Source of the DNA: Pseudomonadota bacterium
Lineage (GTDB): Archaea > Thermoplasmatota > SW-10-69-26 > JACQPN01 > JAJPHT01
Direction of reading: 5' to 3'
Assembly: GCA_021325135.1 (NCBI GenBank)
Contig: JAJPHT010000022.1
Coordinates: forward strand, 32,001 to 96,000
Length of the DNA: 64,000 bases
The notes under the pieces are model-generated. The model was not told the DNA's origin. It searched no databases and was given only the letters and a program-made list of their open reading frames with translations. The position numbers were made by a program, and so were the translations under genes. Every line of letters starts with the position of its first letter. The stretch's first letter is position 1. Below are positions 18,595 through 64,000 of this stretch, piece by piece.

Positions 18595-18597
18595 AGC

Positions 18598-18625
18598 GGG
18601 GAGTTCGGGGGGCGCAGCCCCCTGA
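18598..18625. repeat. Single REP-like unit (half element)
   Basis: GGGGAGTTCGGGGGGCGCAGCCCCCTGA, matching the inner hairpin unit of the palindromic family. Confidence 0.6.
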
Positions 18626-18637
18626 AGAAAGAGGAGT

Positions 18638-18788
18638 CGTCCGGCCGCGCCGCAGCGCGGCCAAAATGGGGGATTTCAGGGGGGCTCGCCCCCCTGACGT
18701 CTCGGTCGCCTGCTCGACGTGATTTCACGTCAGGGGGCTGCGCCCCCTGAAACCCCCGCTTTTGGCCGCGCTGCGGCGCGGCCGGACG
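18638..18788. mobile_element. 151-bp REPIN/MITE-like palindromic element (complete)
   Basis: Perfect 29-bp terminal inverted repeat enclosing two inverted CAGGGGG-n-CCCCCTG hairpins; near-identical copy at 58410. Confidence 0.8.
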
Positions 18789-42930: not shown

Positions 42931-43055
42931 CCGAAGGGGGTTCGGGGGGGCGAAGCCCCCTGGCGTTTTCATCCCTGGATCAGACGACTTCACGTCAGGG
43001 GGCTTCGCCCCCTGAAACCCCCTCGGGTCGCCGCGCTGCGGCGCGGCGGAGACGA
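42931..43055. mobile_element. REPIN/MITE-like palindromic element (lacks left outer arm)
   Basis: Inverted pair GGGGGGGCGAAGCCCCC and CGTCAGGGGGCTTCGCCCCCTGAAACCCCC, plus right arm GCCGCGCTGCGGCGCGGC. Confidence 0.72.
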
Positions 43056-55878: not shown

Positions 55879-58383
55879 GTGGACCGCAAGAAGATGGAAT
55901 ACCTCGCGCTGGCCGGCATGGGCGTCGGCCTCGTGGGCGCGATCCTGGGCGCCGTGCCCGCGATGCGCCTGCTCTCCCCCTTCGCGCTGGCCGCCGGCGT
56001 CGGCCTCGTGGCGCTCCACGGGTGGATGCTGGGCCGCCTCGCGCCCTCGGAGCGCCAGGAGAGCGACGACGAGCGCTTCCAGCGCGAGCTGGCGCTCAAC
56101 GCCTCCAGCATCTTCCTCTCCGTCGTCTTCCTGCTCCTGGCGCTCGTGGAGGTCCTCGCGATCCCCGCGACGCTGGGCTACCTCGTCGTGCTTGACGCCC
56201 TGGGCCTCCAGCTCATCGCGTTCTACCCGGTGATCACGGCGGGCCTCCTCTGCACGCTGGCCGGCGCGGCGCTCCTCGCGGGGCGCGGCCACGGCGGCGC
56301 GCGCTTGACGAGCCAGCAGCGCGCGGGCGCGCAGGCCGCCCTGGGCCTCACGGGCGCCTTCGTGCTCGCCGGCCTCCTCGTGGGCGTGGGCGCGGGCCGG
56401 CCGCTGGACATCCAGCCCGAGCGCGCGGTCTTCCTCATCGCGGCGAGCCTCGTCTCGCTCTTCTTCTTCCTGCGCTCGTGGCTGGCGCTCCCCTCGTACT
56501 CGCAGGTCACCGAGTGGCTGGAGAACGAGGACCGCCTCAAGGACTCGGGCCTCCTGCGCAAGGTGGCCCTCTCCATGCTGGGCCTCGCGGCGGTGGGCAT
56601 CGTGCTCTCGCTGGTCCCCATGTTCGGCGTGCTGCCGCGCAAGGCGGGCATCGCGGGCACGGGCGTCGCCATGCTGACGCTCCTCTTCGCCACGTTCAAC
56701 GTCGGCGTCTCCCACGTCGTGCCCTTCGCGGGCCTCTCGGGCGATGCCGCCGACGAGCGCCGCAAGCGCCGCGTCATCCTCTCGGCCGCGAGCATCGTGC
56801 TCAACGTGCTCGCCCTCGCCGTGGGCATCCTCACCATTCTGGCGTTCTTCGCGCAGGTGGGCGGCGTCGTCATCTTCCGCTCGCTCCTGGCCGCCTTCGT
56901 CGCGAGCTACCCGGCCATCTTCGCCGCGGTGTTCCTCGCCCTGGGCGCCGTCGTCGCGGTGCGCATGCGCATCCGCAGCGACCTCGCCTACTCGGACAAG
57001 CTCAAGGCCCTCGCGCTGGGCATGGCGACGCTCGTGCTGGTGCTGGGCTTCTTCGGCATCTTCATCGGCAGCGGCCTCGCGGAGGGCAGCGGCATCGAGA
57101 TCGAGAACGCGGTCCTCGCCCTGGGCGCGGCCGTCGTGTGCCTCATCCAGTTCGTCAAGGCCCGCACGCTGCTGCCCGGCGTCGTGGGCATGATCCGCGA
57201 CTCCATCAAGTCCAGCGCCCAGGCCGACAAGAGCCAGCAGGCCAGCATCAAGAACCGCATGATCGCGACCTACGTCACGGCCCTGGTGTTCGTCCTGGGC
57301 TTCGTGGCGTTCGTCGCGGCCACGACGCTTGGCGCCATCCCCTCGCCCAAGTCGAGCCTGGGGACGGACGTGGGCTTCTTCGTCTACCTCCTGGGCGGCA
57401 TCGCGCTCCTGGTCGTCGTCGTGATGCGCTACTTCCAGAGCGTCAACATCGACCAGCGCTGGCAGAAGCGCGCGACCGACGAGGAGAGCGCCATCGGCAA
57501 GAAGCGCCTCACCTCCCAGCAGGTGCAGCGCTACCTCATCCTGGGCTTCTCCTTCGGCATCGCGGGCGCCCTCGCCCTCATGGGCCTCCTCGTCACGCTG
57601 GACAAGGTCCACCAGCTGGGCCCCCTGCCCCTGGCCAAGAAGTACGGCACGGACTTCTTCGTCTTCGCCATCCTCATCGGCCTGGGCCCCTACGGCTGGT
57701 ACTCGGCGCGCGAGGCCAACCGCATCGAGGCCATCGACCAGAAGTTCCCCGAGTTCCTGCGCGACCTCGCCGAGTCCCAGCGCGCGGGCATGACGCTCAC
57801 CGAGGCCGTCATCACGGCGAGCAAGGGCAACTACGGCGTCCTCTCCAGCGAGATCCGCAAGATGGCGGCGCAGATCCAGTGGGGCGTCTCGTTCCCCAGC
57901 GCGCTGGAGCGCTTCGCCGCGCGCGTGAACACGCCCCTCATCCGCCGCACCGTGAGCCTGGTCATCCAGGCGTCCAACGCGGGCGGCAACACCGTGGACG
58001 TGCTCACCGCGGCGGCGGACGACGCGCGCGAGATCCAGCAGATCGTGAAGGAGCGCAAGCAGTCGATGAGCATCTACCTGATGATCATCTACATCGCCTT
58101 CGCCGTCTTCGTGGGCGTCATCGCCGTGCTCAACGCGCAGTTCATCCCCGAGGTCGCCAAGGCCGTGAGCAAGGCCGACGGCGTGAGCATCGGCGGCCTG
58201 CACTTCCGCAAGTTCGACCAGGACGACTTCAAGACGCTCTTCTTCCACGCCGCGGTCATCCAGGGCCTGGGCGGCGGGATCGTGGGCGGCATCATGTCGG
58301 GCGGGAAGCCCGTGCAAGGGTTGAGGCACAGCTTCATCCTCGTCTTCCTGGCGTGGGTGCTCTTCCGGATCGTCATCGGGTGA
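55879..58383 (+). CDS. PilC/TadC protein with large duplicated multi-TM N-terminal extension
   Basis: C-terminal T2SSF domain (FPEFLRDLAE..RAGMTL, YG.L..EI, GG....VL); about 600 aa of TM helices upstream. Confidence 0.85.
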   Translation: MDRKKMEYLALAGMGVGLVGAILGAVPAMRLLSPFALAAGVGLVALHGWMLGRLAPSERQESDDERFQRELALNASSIFLSVVFLLLALVEVLAIPATLGYLVVLDALGLQLIAFYPVITAGLLCTLAGAALLAGRGHGGARLTSQQRAGAQAALGLTGAFVLAGLLVGVGAGRPLDIQPERAVFLIAASLVSLFFFLRSWLALPSYSQVTEWLENEDRLKDSGLLRKVALSMLGLAAVGIVLSLVPMFGVLPRKAGIAGTGVAMLTLLFATFNVGVSHVVPFAGLSGDAADERRKRRVILSAASIVLNVLALAVGILTILAFFAQVGGVVIFRSLLAAFVASYPAIFAAVFLALGAVVAVRMRIRSDLAYSDKLKALALGMATLVLVLGFFGIFIGSGLAEGSGIEIENAVLALGAAVVCLIQFVKARTLLPGVVGMIRDSIKSSAQADKSQQASIKNRMIATYVTALVFVLGFVAFVAATTLGAIPSPKSSLGTDVGFFVYLLGGIALLVVVVMRYFQSVNIDQRWQKRATDEESAIGKKRLTSQQVQRYLILGFSFGIAGALALMGLLVTLDKVHQLGPLPLAKKYGTDFFVFAILIGLGPYGWYSAREANRIEAIDQKFPEFLRDLAESQRAGMTLTEAVITASKGNYGVLSSEIRKMAAQIQWGVSFPSALERFAARVNTPLIRRTVSLVIQASNAGGNTVDVLTAAADDAREIQQIVKERKQSMSIYLMIIYIAFAVFVGVIAVLNAQFIPEVAKAVSKADGVSIGGLHFRKFDQDDFKTLFFHAAVIQGLGGGIVGGIMSGGKPVQGLRHSFILVFLAWVLFRIVIG

Positions 58384-58391
58384 GGGAAAAA

Positions 58392-59143
58392 ATGACAGAC
58401 TGCCAGACGTCGTCGGCCGCGCCGCAGCGCGGCCAAAAGGGGGGTTTCAGGGGGGCTCGCCCCCCTGACGTCTCGTCTGGTGAGCCGACGCTCTTCCCGT
58501 CAGGGGGCTGCGCCCCCTGAAACCCCCGCGGGTAGCCGCGCTGCGGCGCGGCCGACGATCGGGTGATCATGGTCAACTGATGCTCGTCTCCGGCATCGTC
58601 ATCACCATCGCGTTCCTCCTCACAGCGCTGACCCTCTCGCAGGTGAGCAGCATCGAGCGGCAGGCCGCGGCGGACAAGCCCACCTCCCTTTCGGCGGAGT
58701 GGCGCTTCCTCCACGACCGCCTCAAGACGAACCTCCAGACCGCTGTGAGCGTGGACACCACCAACGACACGCTCATCAACACCACCTGGCCCGCCGTGGC
58801 GGCGACGTTCCGCAACATCGAGGCGGAGAAAGGGTACGACCTCGTGCTCCGCATCGCGGGGAACACCACCTCGGGCGTGGGCACGTTCAACCTCAGCGAG
58901 AACCGCACGGGGATCACGTCGGGCGGCGTCTTCACGACCTACAACGCCACGAGCTTCGACGGACAGACGACGTTCAACTGGGCCGCGGACGGGAAGGACG
59001 ACGGCTTGATCTGGCACGCCTCGTGCCTCGACCAGACCAACGGCAACGTGGGCTGCATCCAGGGGGTCCTGGTGGGCATGCACCTGGCGGACCAGTCGAC
59101 GAACATCGATGAGGTCGTCCTCATCGCCGTCAACACCGGGTGA
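58392..59143 (+). CDS. Pilin-like protein whose 5' end is interrupted by a palindromic element (uninterrupted ORF from 58580)
   Basis: Joining 58392-58409 to 58559-59143 gives MTDCQTSGDHG|QLMLVSGIVITIAFLL, a class III signal. Confidence 0.65.
58410..58558. mobile_element. 149-bp REPIN/MITE-like palindromic element (complete)
   Basis: Perfect 24-bp terminal inverted repeat; inner hairpins identical to the 18638 copy. Confidence 0.85.
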
Positions 59144-59247: not shown

Positions 59248-62200
59248 ATGCGCAGACCGCGGGACGACGCCGGAAGCACCCACGTGCTCGAGGCGGTCAT
59301 CATCGCGACGATCATGGTCTCCTCCGTGATCTACGTCGCGACGTTCCAGTCGCCCCCCGCCGCGACGACCAACACGCGCGCGGGCCTCCAGCAGCGCTCG
59401 CAGGACGCGCTGGACATCCTCGCCGACACGCCCGTGCCGGGCTCCTCCTTCGGCGACAACATGCTCTCCGCGTACTCCGCGGCGTGCCTCCAGGGCAGCT
59501 GCGACGACCTGCGCCAGACCATGGAGCGCCTCCTGCCTCCGGGCACGCAGTTCTCGCTCTCCATCTCCAACGGCTTCAACACGTGGCCCGTCTACGAGCC
59601 CCGCTCGCCCCCCGGCGAGGCCGTCACGACGTCGCACCTCATGGAGCCCAAGTGGAGCTACACCTTCCTGGGCACGGGCCAGAGCCTCGTGAACCCCTCG
59701 CGCGACCCTCTCTACACCTACTCGCTGCCCGTCTTCGACTCCAACGTGCTCGACCAGGGCGGCAGCCCGCTGCGCGTCATCCTCCACGGCTCGGCCGGCA
59801 GCGGCAACTTCACGCTGAGCACGGCGGCCACGACGGAGGCGCGCAAGACGACCAGCGCGGCCACGCCCGCGGCGTCGCTCTTCTTCGTCGACGGCTCGGG
59901 GACCCCCGTGGGCGCGCTGGACATCGCCGGCACGACCGCGCACGGCACGCCCTCGACGCCCACCCACGCCAACGTGCAGTTCCGCCTCCGCCTCCAGGAG
60001 TCCGCCAACCAGCCCATCCCCGCGGGCGCGCAGCTGGACGTGAGCCTCCCCCGCGGCTGGAACGCCAGCGTCACCTCCGCGCTGGACCCGGGCTGGACGA
60101 TCGTCGCCTCCGCCGCCAACGCCACCGGCGGCGCCACCGACGCCGTGCTCAGCGCCCGCCTCGCGACGGCCCTCCAGAACGGGACGCGGGACTTCGTGTT
60201 CAACGCCACCTACCAGGGCGACCTCGTGGGCGACTACCTCTTCCACGCCGCGATGTCGCGCGGCTCGCTGGCCCAGGCGGGCCTCGCCGTGCGCGCGGAC
60301 ACCTCCACGACCAGCTCCTACGCGACGCCCGTCTTCACCATCTCCGCGCCCCGGCCCATGGGCGCCAGCGCCACGACGACGTGGACGCTGGGCGCCACCA
60401 TCCCCAACGGCACGGCCGTCACCGTCAACTCCATCGAGATCGTCGAGCAGGACGGGCGCTCCATCTTCGGCAACGCCTCGGTCGTGAGCGGCGGCGGCTC
60501 GGTCGTGGCCGGAGGCGACCGCATCGTGTGGACCGCCCCCGACGTGGACGTCACGAGCTTCCTCACCCTCGCGCTCAACGTCACGCCCAGCGGCACCGTC
60601 GCGAGCCCCGACAACCCCCGCGCCGAGTTCCAGCCCCCCATGACCGTGGCGAACTTCACCGGCCGCTGGATCGAGTCCGCCGGCACGGGCCTCTGGCGCC
60701 AGGCGCTCCTGCCCAACGTGACCTACGGCGGCTACGACACCAACTCGGGCCTCTCCCTCACGACGAACCACTCCATGTCCAGCGAGGGCACCTACAAGGG
60801 CATCGCGATGCCCGGCAGCGGGAACTACACGCTGGGCAACGTCAGCACCAGCAACACCGCCGCCTACGGCTCCTACGTCGGGCTGGAGCGCCGCCAGGTC
60901 GCGACGGGGGACACCGCCGTCGTGGACATCGACGTGCAGTCGCTCCTCTTCACGCTCTCCTCCGCGGGCCAGAAGGCCGGCATCACGCTGCACGTCTATC
61001 CTCCCTGGAGCGGCGACCAGCGCATCCCCATCCAGTCCAACACCAGCTTCGACACGGAGCTGCTCACGAGCGACGTCATGTCGATGACGCTCCTCGACGT
61101 CAACGGCGACGGCTACGCGGACCCCGTGCTGGGCACGAGCAACGGCCGCGTCCTCGCCCTCCACGCGCTCACCGGCGGCCGCATCGAGGCGGACGTCTTC
61201 TCCGCGCCCTTCGACTCCTCCCAGCAGGGGAGCACGGCGCCCTCCATCACGCAGCTGGGCCTCATCGACCTGGGCGGCCAGACCTACATCGTGGTCACGA
61301 CGAACCAGGGCAGCGTCTTCGTGCTGGACCACTCGCTGCGCCTCGCGTGGTCGTGGTACTGGTCGTCCGCGTCCCCCTCCAACGTCGCGGCGCAGGTCAT
61401 CTCCATGGACGCCAGCGCCGACGTCGACGGCGACGGCCGGCACGACGTCGTCGTGGGCGTGCAGGTGCAGGACCAGGGCGGCGCCAGCGCGGGCAACGTC
61501 GTCTTCGTCCTGCGCGCGCTCGTGGGCGACCCCTACCTGGAGGCGTGGGACCCGGCGGACGGCCCCTCGGGCCAGAACCAGCTCTACACCACCGTGGGCA
61601 CGCCCAACGCGGTGCTGGGCCTCTCGCGCATCGGCCCCGCGGGCACGCACCCGGGCATCGCGACCACCTTCCAGTACACGCCCGGCCTCGCGGGCGTGGG
61701 CACCCAGTCCATCAACCCGCTGGGCCCCTCCGGCGCCACCGCCACGCTCTCGCTTCCCAAGGCCGGCATGCACGGCGTCAACAACGACAGCACCGACGCG
61801 TGGACCTTCTCGGGCCCGCCCATCACCGTCGCGCGCACCTACGACTACGAGGGCAACGGCATCCCCGACATCGTGGGTGGCGCCCCCGCGGGCTACGTCT
61901 TCATGATGAACGGCACCGAGCCCACCTCGCCCGTCGTCTCCACGTCGCTCACGAGCCCGCCCGCCACGGAGGTCATCGCCTCGGCGACGCACGACGGGCT
62001 GCGCAGCGCGTTCCTCACCCGCGACCGCTCCATCTACTACACCACCGACGGCTGGATCTCGCAGCACAACGTCTGCGACCCCGCGACGCAGGTCTGCCTG
62101 GCGCCCCTGGGCGCCGCGGCCCTGGCCATGAACGCGTCGTCCTCCTTCTGGGTCGCCGGAAGCGCGGGCGGCCTGTGGCGGACGCCCCCCGCGGCGGACT

Positions 62201-64000
62201 CGGCCAGCGCGTCCTCGCTCAACCTCGCGACCGTCTCCCCCATCAACGCGACCAAGGACGGCAGCGCGTTCGACCTGGGCGTCACGGGCACGCTCTACAA
62301 CTTCAACGGCGTCTCCTTCCGCTGGGGCGACCAGGGCAACGTGGGCTTCGTCATCGGCACGCCCGTCTCCTGCGTCCTCGCGCCGTGCGCGGCGGAGGAC
62401 CTCGTCATGAACACCAGCACCGGCGGCCAGACCTGGACCGTCGCCTCCAATGCGTCGGGCACGCTCCAGGGCCGCGACAACCGCACCGTCACGGCCCCGC
62501 TGGTCCGCCTCAACTTCTCCACGGACTCCCTGGGCTGGATCGTGGGCGGCAACGGCACGCTGCTGCGCACCCTCGACGGCGGCGCCCACTGGCACGGCGT
62601 CAACGTGTCGGGCACCATCGTGAACCTCACCGACGTCTCGTGCGCCGCCCTCGCGCCCGACACCTGCATCGTCGTGGGCGCCAGCGGCCACGCGTGGCGC
62701 ACGACGAACTCCCGCGCCGCGTACCCCACGTGGACCGCCATCGACCTGGGCCCCGCCGCCAGCGGGCGCGACATCTCCTCGGTGGGCCTCGTGAACACGA
62801 GCGTCGCCTACGCGGGCGCCAGCAATCTCATCCTGAAGACCTGGGACGGCGGCGACCACTGGACCGTCATGCCGCTGAGCTACGTCCCGTCCAACGGGGA
62901 CATCGTCAACGTGCTCCCCGACGGCCAGGGCTACGTCTACGGCGGCACCGCGACCACGCAGCGCACCTTCTACCTGGGCGCGCACAACCTCACCAGCCGC
63001 GCGCAGACGACCAACGTCGCCACGGGCCTGCCCCCCGGCTCCCAGGTGACGCGCGTCGACATGGAGGTCAGCGACTCGCAGAACTACGCGACCCCCCCCT
63101 CCACGTCCATGTCCATCGTCACGTTCAACGTGACCGCGGACGGCGGCGCGCACTGGTTCGCGGCCTCCACCAACAGCAGCGGCTACGTGGACCCGCTCAC
63201 CAACCTCGTCACCGCGTACTACCCCAAGGCCTCCAGCCACGCCGAGTGGGGGAGCCAGGTCTACGACTACGTCGAGGGGTGGACGACGAGCACCGCGACC
63301 GCGACCGGCTCCGACGTGCGCGTGCGCATGGACTTCAACACCACCGGCGATTTCGCGGCCTTCACGGCCTCGGTCCACGCCATCACGCTCAACGTCACCT
63401 ACTGGAACGGCAGCGCGTACAACATGATGCCCTTCACGGTGGACCTCAACAGCACGGCGAAGAAGGACGCCGCCAACACCGACGCCGTCTGGGTGGATGG
63501 CGGCGGGAGCGTCTACCAGCCCCTCGTGCAGCCCTACTGGGTGCGCAACGTGAGCGGCTCCGTGCAGGACCTCCTCGTGGGGCTCAACGTCACGGGCGAC
63601 TCGCGCGCCGAGGTCTACGTCTCCACGGGCGCGGTCATCGCCGAGAACAGCCCCGACAGCATCCCCTACGCGGGCAACAACCCCGGCATGACCATCGCGC
63701 CCGACGACAACCGCGTCTACCTCCTCGACGGGAAGAACGGCACCATCGCCGCGCAGACCGCGAGCTTCGGCGGCGCCGTCACGCACCTGGCCCTCAGCGA
63801 CTCCAACGGCGACGGCGTCCCTGAGTACCTCTACGCGACCGTGTGGGACGGCGCCAGCACCGCGCAGCTCGTGTGCATGGACCCCGCCACGCTGGCCATC
63901 AAGTGGCAGAAGACCATCGGCGCGACGATGCCCACGGCGCTGGCCGCCGGCGCGCTCCAGGGAGCCAACGCCACCGCCTTCGTCACCGACCGCACCGGCG
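59248..64000 (+). CDS. Giant pilin-like adhesin with FG-GAP and BNR/YCF48 repeats, 3'-truncated by window edge (>1580 aa, absent from ORF track)
   Basis: MRRPRDDAG|STHVLEAVIIA N-terminus; DVNGDGYAD, DVDGDGRHD, DYEGNGIPD and DSNGDGVPE loops; RTLDGGAHW and KTWDGGDHW Asp-boxes; GGAGGA RBS. Confidence 0.85.
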   Translation, partial: MRRPRDDAGSTHVLEAVIIATIMVSSVIYVATFQSPPAATTNTRAGLQQRSQDALDILADTPVPGSSFGDNMLSAYSAACLQGSCDDLRQTMERLLPPGTQFSLSISNGFNTWPVYEPRSPPGEAVTTSHLMEPKWSYTFLGTGQSLVNPSRDPLYTYSLPVFDSNVLDQGGSPLRVILHGSAGSGNFTLSTAATTEARKTTSAATPAASLFFVDGSGTPVGALDIAGTTAHGTPSTPTHANVQFRLRLQESANQPIPAGAQLDVSLPRGWNASVTSALDPGWTIVASAANATGGATDAVLSARLATALQNGTRDFVFNATYQGDLVGDYLFHAAMSRGSLAQAGLAVRADTSTTSSYATPVFTISAPRPMGASATTTWTLGATIPNGTAVTVNSIEIVEQDGRSIFGNASVVSGGGSVVAGGDRIVWTAPDVDVTSFLTLALNVTPSGTVASPDNPRAEFQPPMTVANFTGRWIESAGTGLWRQALLPNVTYGGYDTNSGLSLTTNHSMSSEGTYKGIAMPGSGNYTLGNVSTSNTAAYGSYVGLERRQVATGDTAVVDIDVQSLLFTLSSAGQKAGITLHVYPPWSGDQRIPIQSNTSFDTELLTSDVMSMTLLDVNGDGYADPVLGTSNGRVLALHALTGGRIEADVFSAPFDSSQQGSTAPSITQLGLIDLGGQTYIVVTTNQGSVFVLDHSLRLAWSWYWSSASPSNVAAQVISMDASADVDGDGRHDVVVGVQVQDQGGASAGNVVFVLRALVGDPYLEAWDPADGPSGQNQLYTTVGTPNAVLGLSRIGPAGTHPGIATTFQYTPGLAGVGTQSINPLGPSGATATLSLPKAGMHGVNNDSTDAWTFSGPPITVARTYDYEGNGIPDIVGGAPAGYVFMMNGTEPTSPVVSTSLTSPPATEVIASATHDGLRSAFLTRDRSIYYTTDGWISQHNVCDPATQVCLAPLGAAALAMNASSSFWVAGSAGGLWRTPPAADSASASSLNLATVSPINATKDGSAFDLGVTGTLYNFNGVSFRWGDQGNVGFVIGTPVSCVLAPCAAEDLVMNTSTGGQTWTVASNASGTLQGRDNRTVTAPLVRLNFSTDSLGWIVGGNGTLLRTLDGGAHWHGVNVSGTIVNLTDVSCAALAPDTCIVVGASGHAWRTTNSRAAYPTWTAIDLGPAASGRDISSVGLVNTSVAYAGASNLILKTWDGGDHWTVMPLSYVPSNGDIVNVLPDGQGYVYGGTATTQRTFYLGAHNLTSRAQTTNVATGLPPGSQVTRVDMEVSDSQNYATPPSTSMSIVTFNVTADGGAHWFAASTNSSGYVDPLTNLVTAYYPKASSHAEWGSQVYDYVEGWTTSTATATGSDVRVRMDFNTTGDFAAFTASVHAITLNVTYWNGSAYNMMPFTVDLNSTAKKDAANTDAVWVDGGGSVYQPLVQPYWVRNVSGSVQDLLVGLNVTGDSRAEVYVSTGAVIAENSPDSIPYAGNNPGMTIAPDDNRVYLLDGKNGTIAAQTASFGGAVTHLALSDSNGDGVPEYLYATVWDGASTAQLVCMDPATLAIKWQKTIGATMPTALAAGALQGANATAFVTDRTG

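Follow-up and report, generated by a model that had tools for sequence, protein, structure and literature searches.

The window, meaning the whole 64,000-nt stretch of DNA that was analysed, belongs to a Thermoplasmata MAG (G000; 3.77 Mb, 51 contigs, 94% complete). Two T2SSF genes in it lie directly upstream of a gene that is predicted to encode a minor pilin of the DUF7261 type in an archaeal type IV pilus locus (Table 1). Against the Pfam DUF7261 model this pilin scored 25.2 bits, short of the 27-bit cut-off (E 2e-5), and a precomputed hit to PF23922 was present for three of its close homologues. The pilin frame carries a class III signature, SGDHG|QLMLVSGIVITIAFLLTALTL, in which a hydrophilic leader ending in Gly is followed by about 20 hydrophobic residues (the vertical bar marks the predicted cleavage site). 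The cleavage consensus of the prepilin family is [DE]xG|QLM, and the homologue P0069 has RSGDHA|Q at this position. No second DUF7261-like gene was found in G000, and a match to Peptidase_A24 (prepilin peptidase) at C22:12771-13112 scored 31.3 bits, above the cut-off. Motifs similar to the Shine-Dalgarno-like sequence listed in Table 1 precede the other internal genes of the operon, with GGAGGTG before 55879 and GGAGG before 59248.

Table 1. Features of the pilC-pilin junction and adjoining genes, in window positions.
Feature	Position	Strand	Remarks
PilC/TadC-like platform gene	55879..58383	+	834 aa; T2SSF domain (Pfam PF00482, E 2e-22); stop TGA 58381-58383
Shine-Dalgarno-like GGTGAGGG	58378..58385	+	6 nt ahead of ATG 58392
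Ancestral pilin start and first six codons (MTDCQT)	58392..58409	+	where orthologues start; severed from the gene body
42-codon frame from the ancestral ATG	58392..58520	+	enters the element; TGA 58518 in the right arm
REP/REPIN-like palindromic element	58410..58558		terminal modules 58410-58434 and 58535-58558; inner G/C-run modules 58440-58470 and 58498-58527; variable 27-nt loop
Pilin frame, open without ATG/GTG/TTG	58484..58579	+	ADALPVRGLRPLKPPRVAALRRGRR (element-coded), then SGDHGQL; gap-free alignment to the P0004 leader
Leader remnant SGDHG	58559..58573	+	predicted prepilin cleavage G|Q between 58573 and 58574
DUF7261-like pilin body as callable	58580..59143	+	187 aa; begins at Met +3 of the mature pilin
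Next operon gene	59248..64000	+	runs off the window; giant DUF7262-like protein with FG-GAP/BNR repeats; leader MRRPRDDAG|S

The start of the pilin gene was examined in twelve orthologous loci of the same taxonomic order, read as DNA. The distance from the pilC stop to the pilin start is 0-15 nt in nine of these loci, which have a short class III leader ending in G|Q, G|N, G|S or A|Q, for example MMRRDDDRG|QLMML in a genome of the same genus (G004), MWRRDDRG|Q, MARDERG|Q, MRGRDSESG|Q and MTTVAEVGDQG|S. Since orthologues start right after the pilC stop, the ancestral start of the pilin is ATG 58392, and the upstream start that had been proposed from the sequence of this locus agrees with those of its orthologues. 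A search widened to the level of the order, which holds only 15 species genomes, added nothing new. At the pilC-pilin junction of G011 (L035:1230-1510), the start region of the pilin was found in at least three tandem copies of 63 nt (21 codons), each with an in-frame GTG, in an array interrupted by a scaffold gap of 100 N.

Across the homologues, called leaders range from 5 to 41 aa, and a class III-type leader is called in 40 of 70. A further 28 of the 70 are annotated from Met +3 of the mature pilin, which is the residue encoded by ATG 58580 in the window. The pilin of the congeneric MAG G002 is among those called from Met +3, despite an in-frame upstream GTG, and the closest relatives P0005 and P0006 are likewise called from this residue. 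With so many starts placed at Met +3 by gene callers, leaders in this pilin family are probably often mis-annotated. Such starts (among P0003-P0072) could reflect either unreliable start calls or common disruption of the leader.

A hairpin lies inside the leader-coding part of the minor pilin gene and parts the ancestral start from the gene body. A sequence-only reading of this region had placed ATG 58392 8 nt past the pilC stop and a 149-nt hairpin at 58410-58558, with TCG at both junctions. It had also ended the frame of ATG 58392 at 58518 and had seen no ATG, GTG or TTG in the pilin frame, open from 58484, before ATG 58580. All of these statements were confirmed, the hairpin by an inverted-repeat search together with an RNA fold. 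ATG 58580 is the Met of SGDHG|QLM and thus lies 3' of the predicted cleavage site; a Shine-Dalgarno-like GGTGATC lies 11 nt from it, farther than at the other genes of the operon. CTG 58508 was considered as a start and rejected, as the only purine-rich stretch abuts the codon without a spacer. A promoter within the element that would give a leaderless mRNA at 58580 was likewise rejected, no AT-rich TATA-like box being visible by eye in 58540-58560.

The same reading had held that exact removal of the hairpin restores the frame. Joining 58409 to 58559 does read MTDCQT-SGDHG|QLMLVSG, but this outcome depends on the ends chosen. When the ends are set by the family consensus (RTCGTY...RACGAY), the element spans 58409-58559, and removal of these 151 nt leaves the frame broken; restoration of a frame by any deletion has a one-in-three chance. 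An 8-nt direct repeat, TCGGGTGA (58376 and 58559), was also assessed as the target duplication of a 183-nt insert, and this was rejected as its removal leaves the pilin frame without a start.

The arms of the hairpin (58410-58470 and 58498-58558) are 61 nt each, 80% complementary and separated by a loop of 27 nt, and the RNA fold of 58392-58600 has an energy of -143.6 kcal/mol (z = -10.8 versus shuffles). The 161-nt stretch around the hairpin gave 86 matches of 72-90% identity in its own genome, and merged BLAST matches identified about 87 places. The earlier claim that a palindromic element has been inserted here was borne out. The hairpin is one of about 87 copies of a family, which the sequence-only reading had missed. 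Aligned copies consist of a terminal mini-hairpin module, TCGTC-CGGCCGCGCC GCAG CGCGGCC, an inner module with runs of G and C, GGGGGGTTTCAGGGGGGCTCGCCCCCCTGACG, a variable loop, and both modules again in inverted order; one terminal module is missing in many copies. Each 61-nt arm has mini-hairpins of its own, and the element shows the REPIN architecture of an inverted pair within one long hairpin. It is bounded by 24-nt terminal inverted repeats, in which TCGTCGGCCGCGCCGCAGCGCGGCC pairs with GCCGCGCTGCGGCGCGGCCGACGA.

No consistent target-site duplication was found in the flanks of 45 aligned copies, and the TCG at the junctions belongs to the inverted repeat itself. A search of the 94%-complete genome for a Y1/RAYT transposase (PF01797) gave no match, while control genomes were detected, and a search for a parent IS with identical ends, which covered the Y1_Tnp family only, identified none. 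Comparison with Rfam returned only sub-threshold matches to generic long hairpins (miRNA precursors), which are meaningless here. The loop occurs in two reverse-complement forms among the genome copies (GACGTTTCGGTCGTCTGCTGGAACGG... and GACGTGAAGGAACCGTTCCAGCAGACG...), and the right-arm subtypes TGAAA/CGAAC and GCGGGTAG/GCTTTTGG were found in each of the four possible pairings, a pattern suggestive of recombination between modules or inversion of the loop. One copy of the element (C22:12256-12383) lies about 400 nt from the only Peptidase_A24 match in the genome.

The genes flanking the family copies were identified using a crude codon-usage score classifier in place of annotation, and in 25 of the 69 strong copies one flank or both scored too weakly for classification. 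The 44 classifiable copies include 26 between convergent, 16 between tandem and 2 between divergent genes, as compared with 19, 62 and 19%, respectively, of all neighbouring gene pairs (p about 1e-10). A gene 3' end adjoins 42 of these 44 copies, 88 of 109 scored flanks face a gene 3' end, and the upstream stop is usually 1-44 nt away. Other tandem copies occupy true spacers, followed by a Shine-Dalgarno-like motif and a start codon 15-50 nt on. Two further copies in the window, at 18596-18784 and 42936-43050 (G000:C24:50596-50784 and 74936-75050), are located in short spacers directly after a stop, with the next gene 21 and 45 nt downstream, respectively. The hairpin at 58410 begins 26 nt past the pilC stop, yet it is inside the leader of the next gene. 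As the family sits behind stop codons and pilC has no spacer after it, the copy at this position falls in the pilin leader, and the family's behind-the-stop rule accounts for where the hairpin lies. The family is built and placed like bacterial REP, REPIN and BIME sequences, minus their defining enzyme.

Repeats that appear to be read in frame were found at the same position in relatives. The homologue P0004 (84% identical, 230 aa) has a 41-aa leader, MGKTPPSKPLPARRRHVRGLRPPNPPLLLALRRSLRAEDGG|Q, that matched translated element copies of G000 in a tblastn search with E values of 2e-8 to 4e-8 (for example KPPDVISVPADDRNVRGLRPPNPPLLAALRR, E 4e-8), and the ATG of this leader is inside the element. 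The leader aligns gap-free to the translation of the pilin frame in the window, VRGLRPLKPPRVAALRRGRRSGDHG|Q, and therefore the P0004 element would lie at the same distance to the cleavage site and in the same orientation, read as leader. The right-arm subtype is PPNPPLL in P0004 and PLKPPRV in the window copy. The two repeats would thus represent either one old insertion that was later homogenised against other copies, or a site that was hit twice. P0004, P0005 and P0006 are known from protein sequences, and two metagenome scans gave only distant loci.

A scan of genome contigs for close relatives returned only G002 and G004. In G002 (JAXDQU01, Thermoplasmata archaeon BP_742, a congeneric MAG), which encodes a pilin 74% identical to that in the window, the junction (L032:1382-1505, JAXDQU010000120.1) carries a different palindrome composed of CACGAAGC/GCTTCGTG 8-mers (fold z = -8.2). 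A search for this palindrome gave 72 matches in G002 but none in G000. Read from either of two GTG codons, one overlapping the pilC stop and the other within the right arm, it shares the reading frame of the pilin. Its ends share TCGTC...GACGA words with the G000 family, which hints at a common mobilisation mechanism. That the same pilC-pilin junction bears repeats in relatives, to all appearance translated ones, is secure, and by the evidence of these sequences the junction is one that repeats have hit more than once. An in-frame coding insertion of the kind described in Rickettsia, which had been among the earlier suggestions, is thus what P0004 and G002 display, whereas the window copy is 149 nt in length and has a stop at 58518.

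The state of the window copy turns on a single base. Among 81 copies, the loop between the inner motifs measures 27 nt in 17, 28 nt in 26, 29 nt in 21 and 30 nt in 11. The window copy has a 27-nt loop; a 28-nt loop, the commonest, combined with its own arms would be in frame, and as assembled the copy is one base short. A C after 58493, present in 77% of aligned family copies, is absent from it. One base added anywhere within 58484-58517, the zone that had been singled out earlier and in which the site of the extra C lies, fuses both frames without a stop to give a 61-aa leader. It is conceivable, if doubtful, that the true element is 150 nt and in frame, with the missing base an assembly or consensus error or a minority variant, and that a largely element-coded leader of 61 aa is cut at G|Q. 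The in-frame relatives P0004 and G002, the undecayed pilin and the good Shine-Dalgarno-like motif retained at ATG 58392 are consistent with this. However, a 27-nt loop is nothing unusual among the copies, the arms have G and C runs of the usual family lengths, and P0005 and P0006 are also called from Met +3. The loop sequence of the window copy is moreover shared with no other copy, which rules out a chimera of another assembled one. Its arms are nearly at the family consensus, which suggests that the insertion may be young. The mature pilin shows no deviation at any of the 45 columns whose conservation among 68 homologues is 90% or more, and its terminal branch, at 0.13 substitutions per site, is comparable to the branches of its nearest relatives. 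Should the insertion be young, this lack of decay reveals little about tolerance; should it be shared with P0004, the same observation is an argument for a gene that functions while carrying the element. A recent knockout had also been put forward; the element, or a later 1-nt deletion in it, would have inactivated the minor pilin, with decay not yet begun. The broken frame, which lacks a canonical start upstream of the cleavage site, and the young appearance of the arms leave room for it. The absence of decay at the conserved columns, the retention of the gene with an element in its leader in related lineages, its standing as the sole DUF7261-like gene found in G000 and the near-mature protein that ATG 58580 could still yield all make inactivation rather unlikely. 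A working pilin could also be made without a leader, starting at ATG 58580, two residues shorter than the processed form and with no need of the peptidase. Conservation of Met +3 in the close family (QLM), the many homologues annotated from this residue, the GGTGATC upstream of ATG 58580 and the constraint on the gene body fit such a start. Against it, the annotated starts are choices of gene callers, as the G002 case illustrates, the positive charges of the leader set the membrane topology of prepilins (PMC4471445), and all readable repeat-bearing relatives have kept an upstream in-frame start. A leaderless functional pilin is hence regarded as improbable.

Recoding of the gene as assembled is very unlikely. 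A tRNA-Pro could slip by -1 on CCCCC before TGA 58518, where re-pairing is perfect (GCC CCC TGA, 58512-58520, to CCC CTG), adjacent to the stop and within the zone of frame overlap, and the shift lands in the pilin frame. However, the slip word CCCCCTGA belongs to the family consensus and recurs in most of the about 87 copies; it therefore provides no gene-specific signal. Ribosomes could otherwise bypass the element from TCG 58410 to TCG 58559, as the take-off and landing codons match and stand at the base of a very stable hairpin, and bypassing of mobile inserts is described for phage T4, with a gap of 50 nt (bioRxiv 10.1101/2022.08.31.505936). In the window the take-off TCG is followed by TCG GCC, with neither a stop nor a rare codon directly after it, and at 149 nt the gap is about three times that of T4, the one known length compared, such that the earlier proposal of bypass is not supported. 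The reversible excision switch for pilus assembly that had been suggested with it fared no better and is highly improbable. The TCG at both junctions would permit scarless loss, but it is part of the inverted repeat, no transposase of the Y1/RAYT type was detected in the 94%-complete genome, and the copy in the relative P0004 has not cycled in and out but has diverged as a coding sequence. Database sequences of at least 83% identity included no empty-site allele. Nothing was found in support of an excision switch, RNA-level removal or bypass. Taken as a description of the present state, a real 1-nt frame break is somewhat favoured, with its likelihood divided about evenly between a leaderless working pilin and a dead one. 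An assembly error or population variant is a lesser possibility, some other state is unlikely, and recoding is very improbable. A broader reading was also considered, in which the pilC-pilin junction is a selected landing site where different hairpin families were acquired independently in sister species and retained thanks to the cleavable leader, and in which the hairpin acts as an RNA-level regulator in the pilus operon (for example by uncoupling the pilin from the platform), the pilin being made via a -1 slip at CCCCC-UGA or naturally leaderless from Met +3. This is judged quite unlikely.

The evidence is probably best explained by a REP/REPIN-like copy that, placed behind the pilC stop, landed in a disposable class III leader which tolerates insertions. 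A dispersed, modular and transposase-less palindromic repeat sits in this genome almost always a few to about 40 nt past a stop codon, and the copy at pilC would have landed six codons into the leader of the next gene, in a part that prepilin peptidase cuts off. Class III leaders in classic cases are 6-26 aa and are removed on the cytoplasmic side (PMC4471445), and tolerance of an insert in a cleavable leader is inferred from this disposability. In one relative the same element, with an ATG inside it, would be read as a leader of 41 aa, and in a congener a different palindrome would be read via GTG. In the window copy as assembled, translation from the ancestral ATG would end after 42 residues. 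This would leave ATG 58580 as the sole start for a pilin, one that lacks the leader and the first two residues of the mature form, unless no pilin is made.

Palindromes that are located within genes and read as protein are best known from Rickettsia, and here an archaeal REP-like family appears to show the same behaviour. That the leader is discarded after export gives a simple reason why such insertions survive. The loci form a natural series, from the empty site (G004 and others) through the in-frame palindrome of G002 and the domesticated element of P0004 to the out-of-frame copy in the window. This series allows one to ask how far a class III leader can change, and whether a pilin functions without one. 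A practical point concerns the annotation of starts in the pilin family, where calls at Met +3 make the annotated leaders probably often wrong.

Like the REP, REPIN and BIME sequences of bacteria (PMC3116915), the G000 family comprises short, GC-rich, imperfect palindromes that are combined as inverted pairs into a long hairpin and form modular mosaics. It also has about 90 dispersed copies that are biased towards positions behind genes, especially between convergent genes. It differs in its archaeal host and in that no RAYT/Y1 transposase was found, and the window copy is in a coding region rather than a spacer. The palindromic elements of Rickettsia (PMC10969869) are similar in that a palindrome of ~150 bp lies in an open reading frame, and P0004 and G002 are likewise predicted to be read through with residues added. 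Here, however, these residues are added to a cleaved leader and not to the mature fold, the window copy is out of frame as assembled, and the family is mostly extragenic whereas Rickettsia elements are often intragenic. Like MITEs, the family is small and non-autonomous, encodes nothing itself and has terminal inverted repeats of 24 nt, but no consistent target-site duplication was seen in the aligned copies and no parent IS was identified in the search for Y1_Tnp.

Mitochondrial byps are mobile hairpin inserts that are bypassed by ribosomes. A gap of 50 nt is bypassed in phage T4 (bioRxiv 10.1101/2022.08.31.505936). The window copy resembles such cases as a hairpin-forming mobile insert in a coding region, flanked by identical junction codons; it differs in that the take-off codon is not followed by a stop or hungry codon and that the distance is 149 rather than 50 nt. 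The leader itself resembles the long class III leaders of type IVb pilins and Flp (PMC4471445), which are hydrophilic, end in Gly and precede a hydrophobic helix, and whose length varies between systems. Against the 6-26 aa of the classic cases, the long leaders at this junction, at 41 to about 61 aa, consist of repeat-element sequence that differs between sister species.
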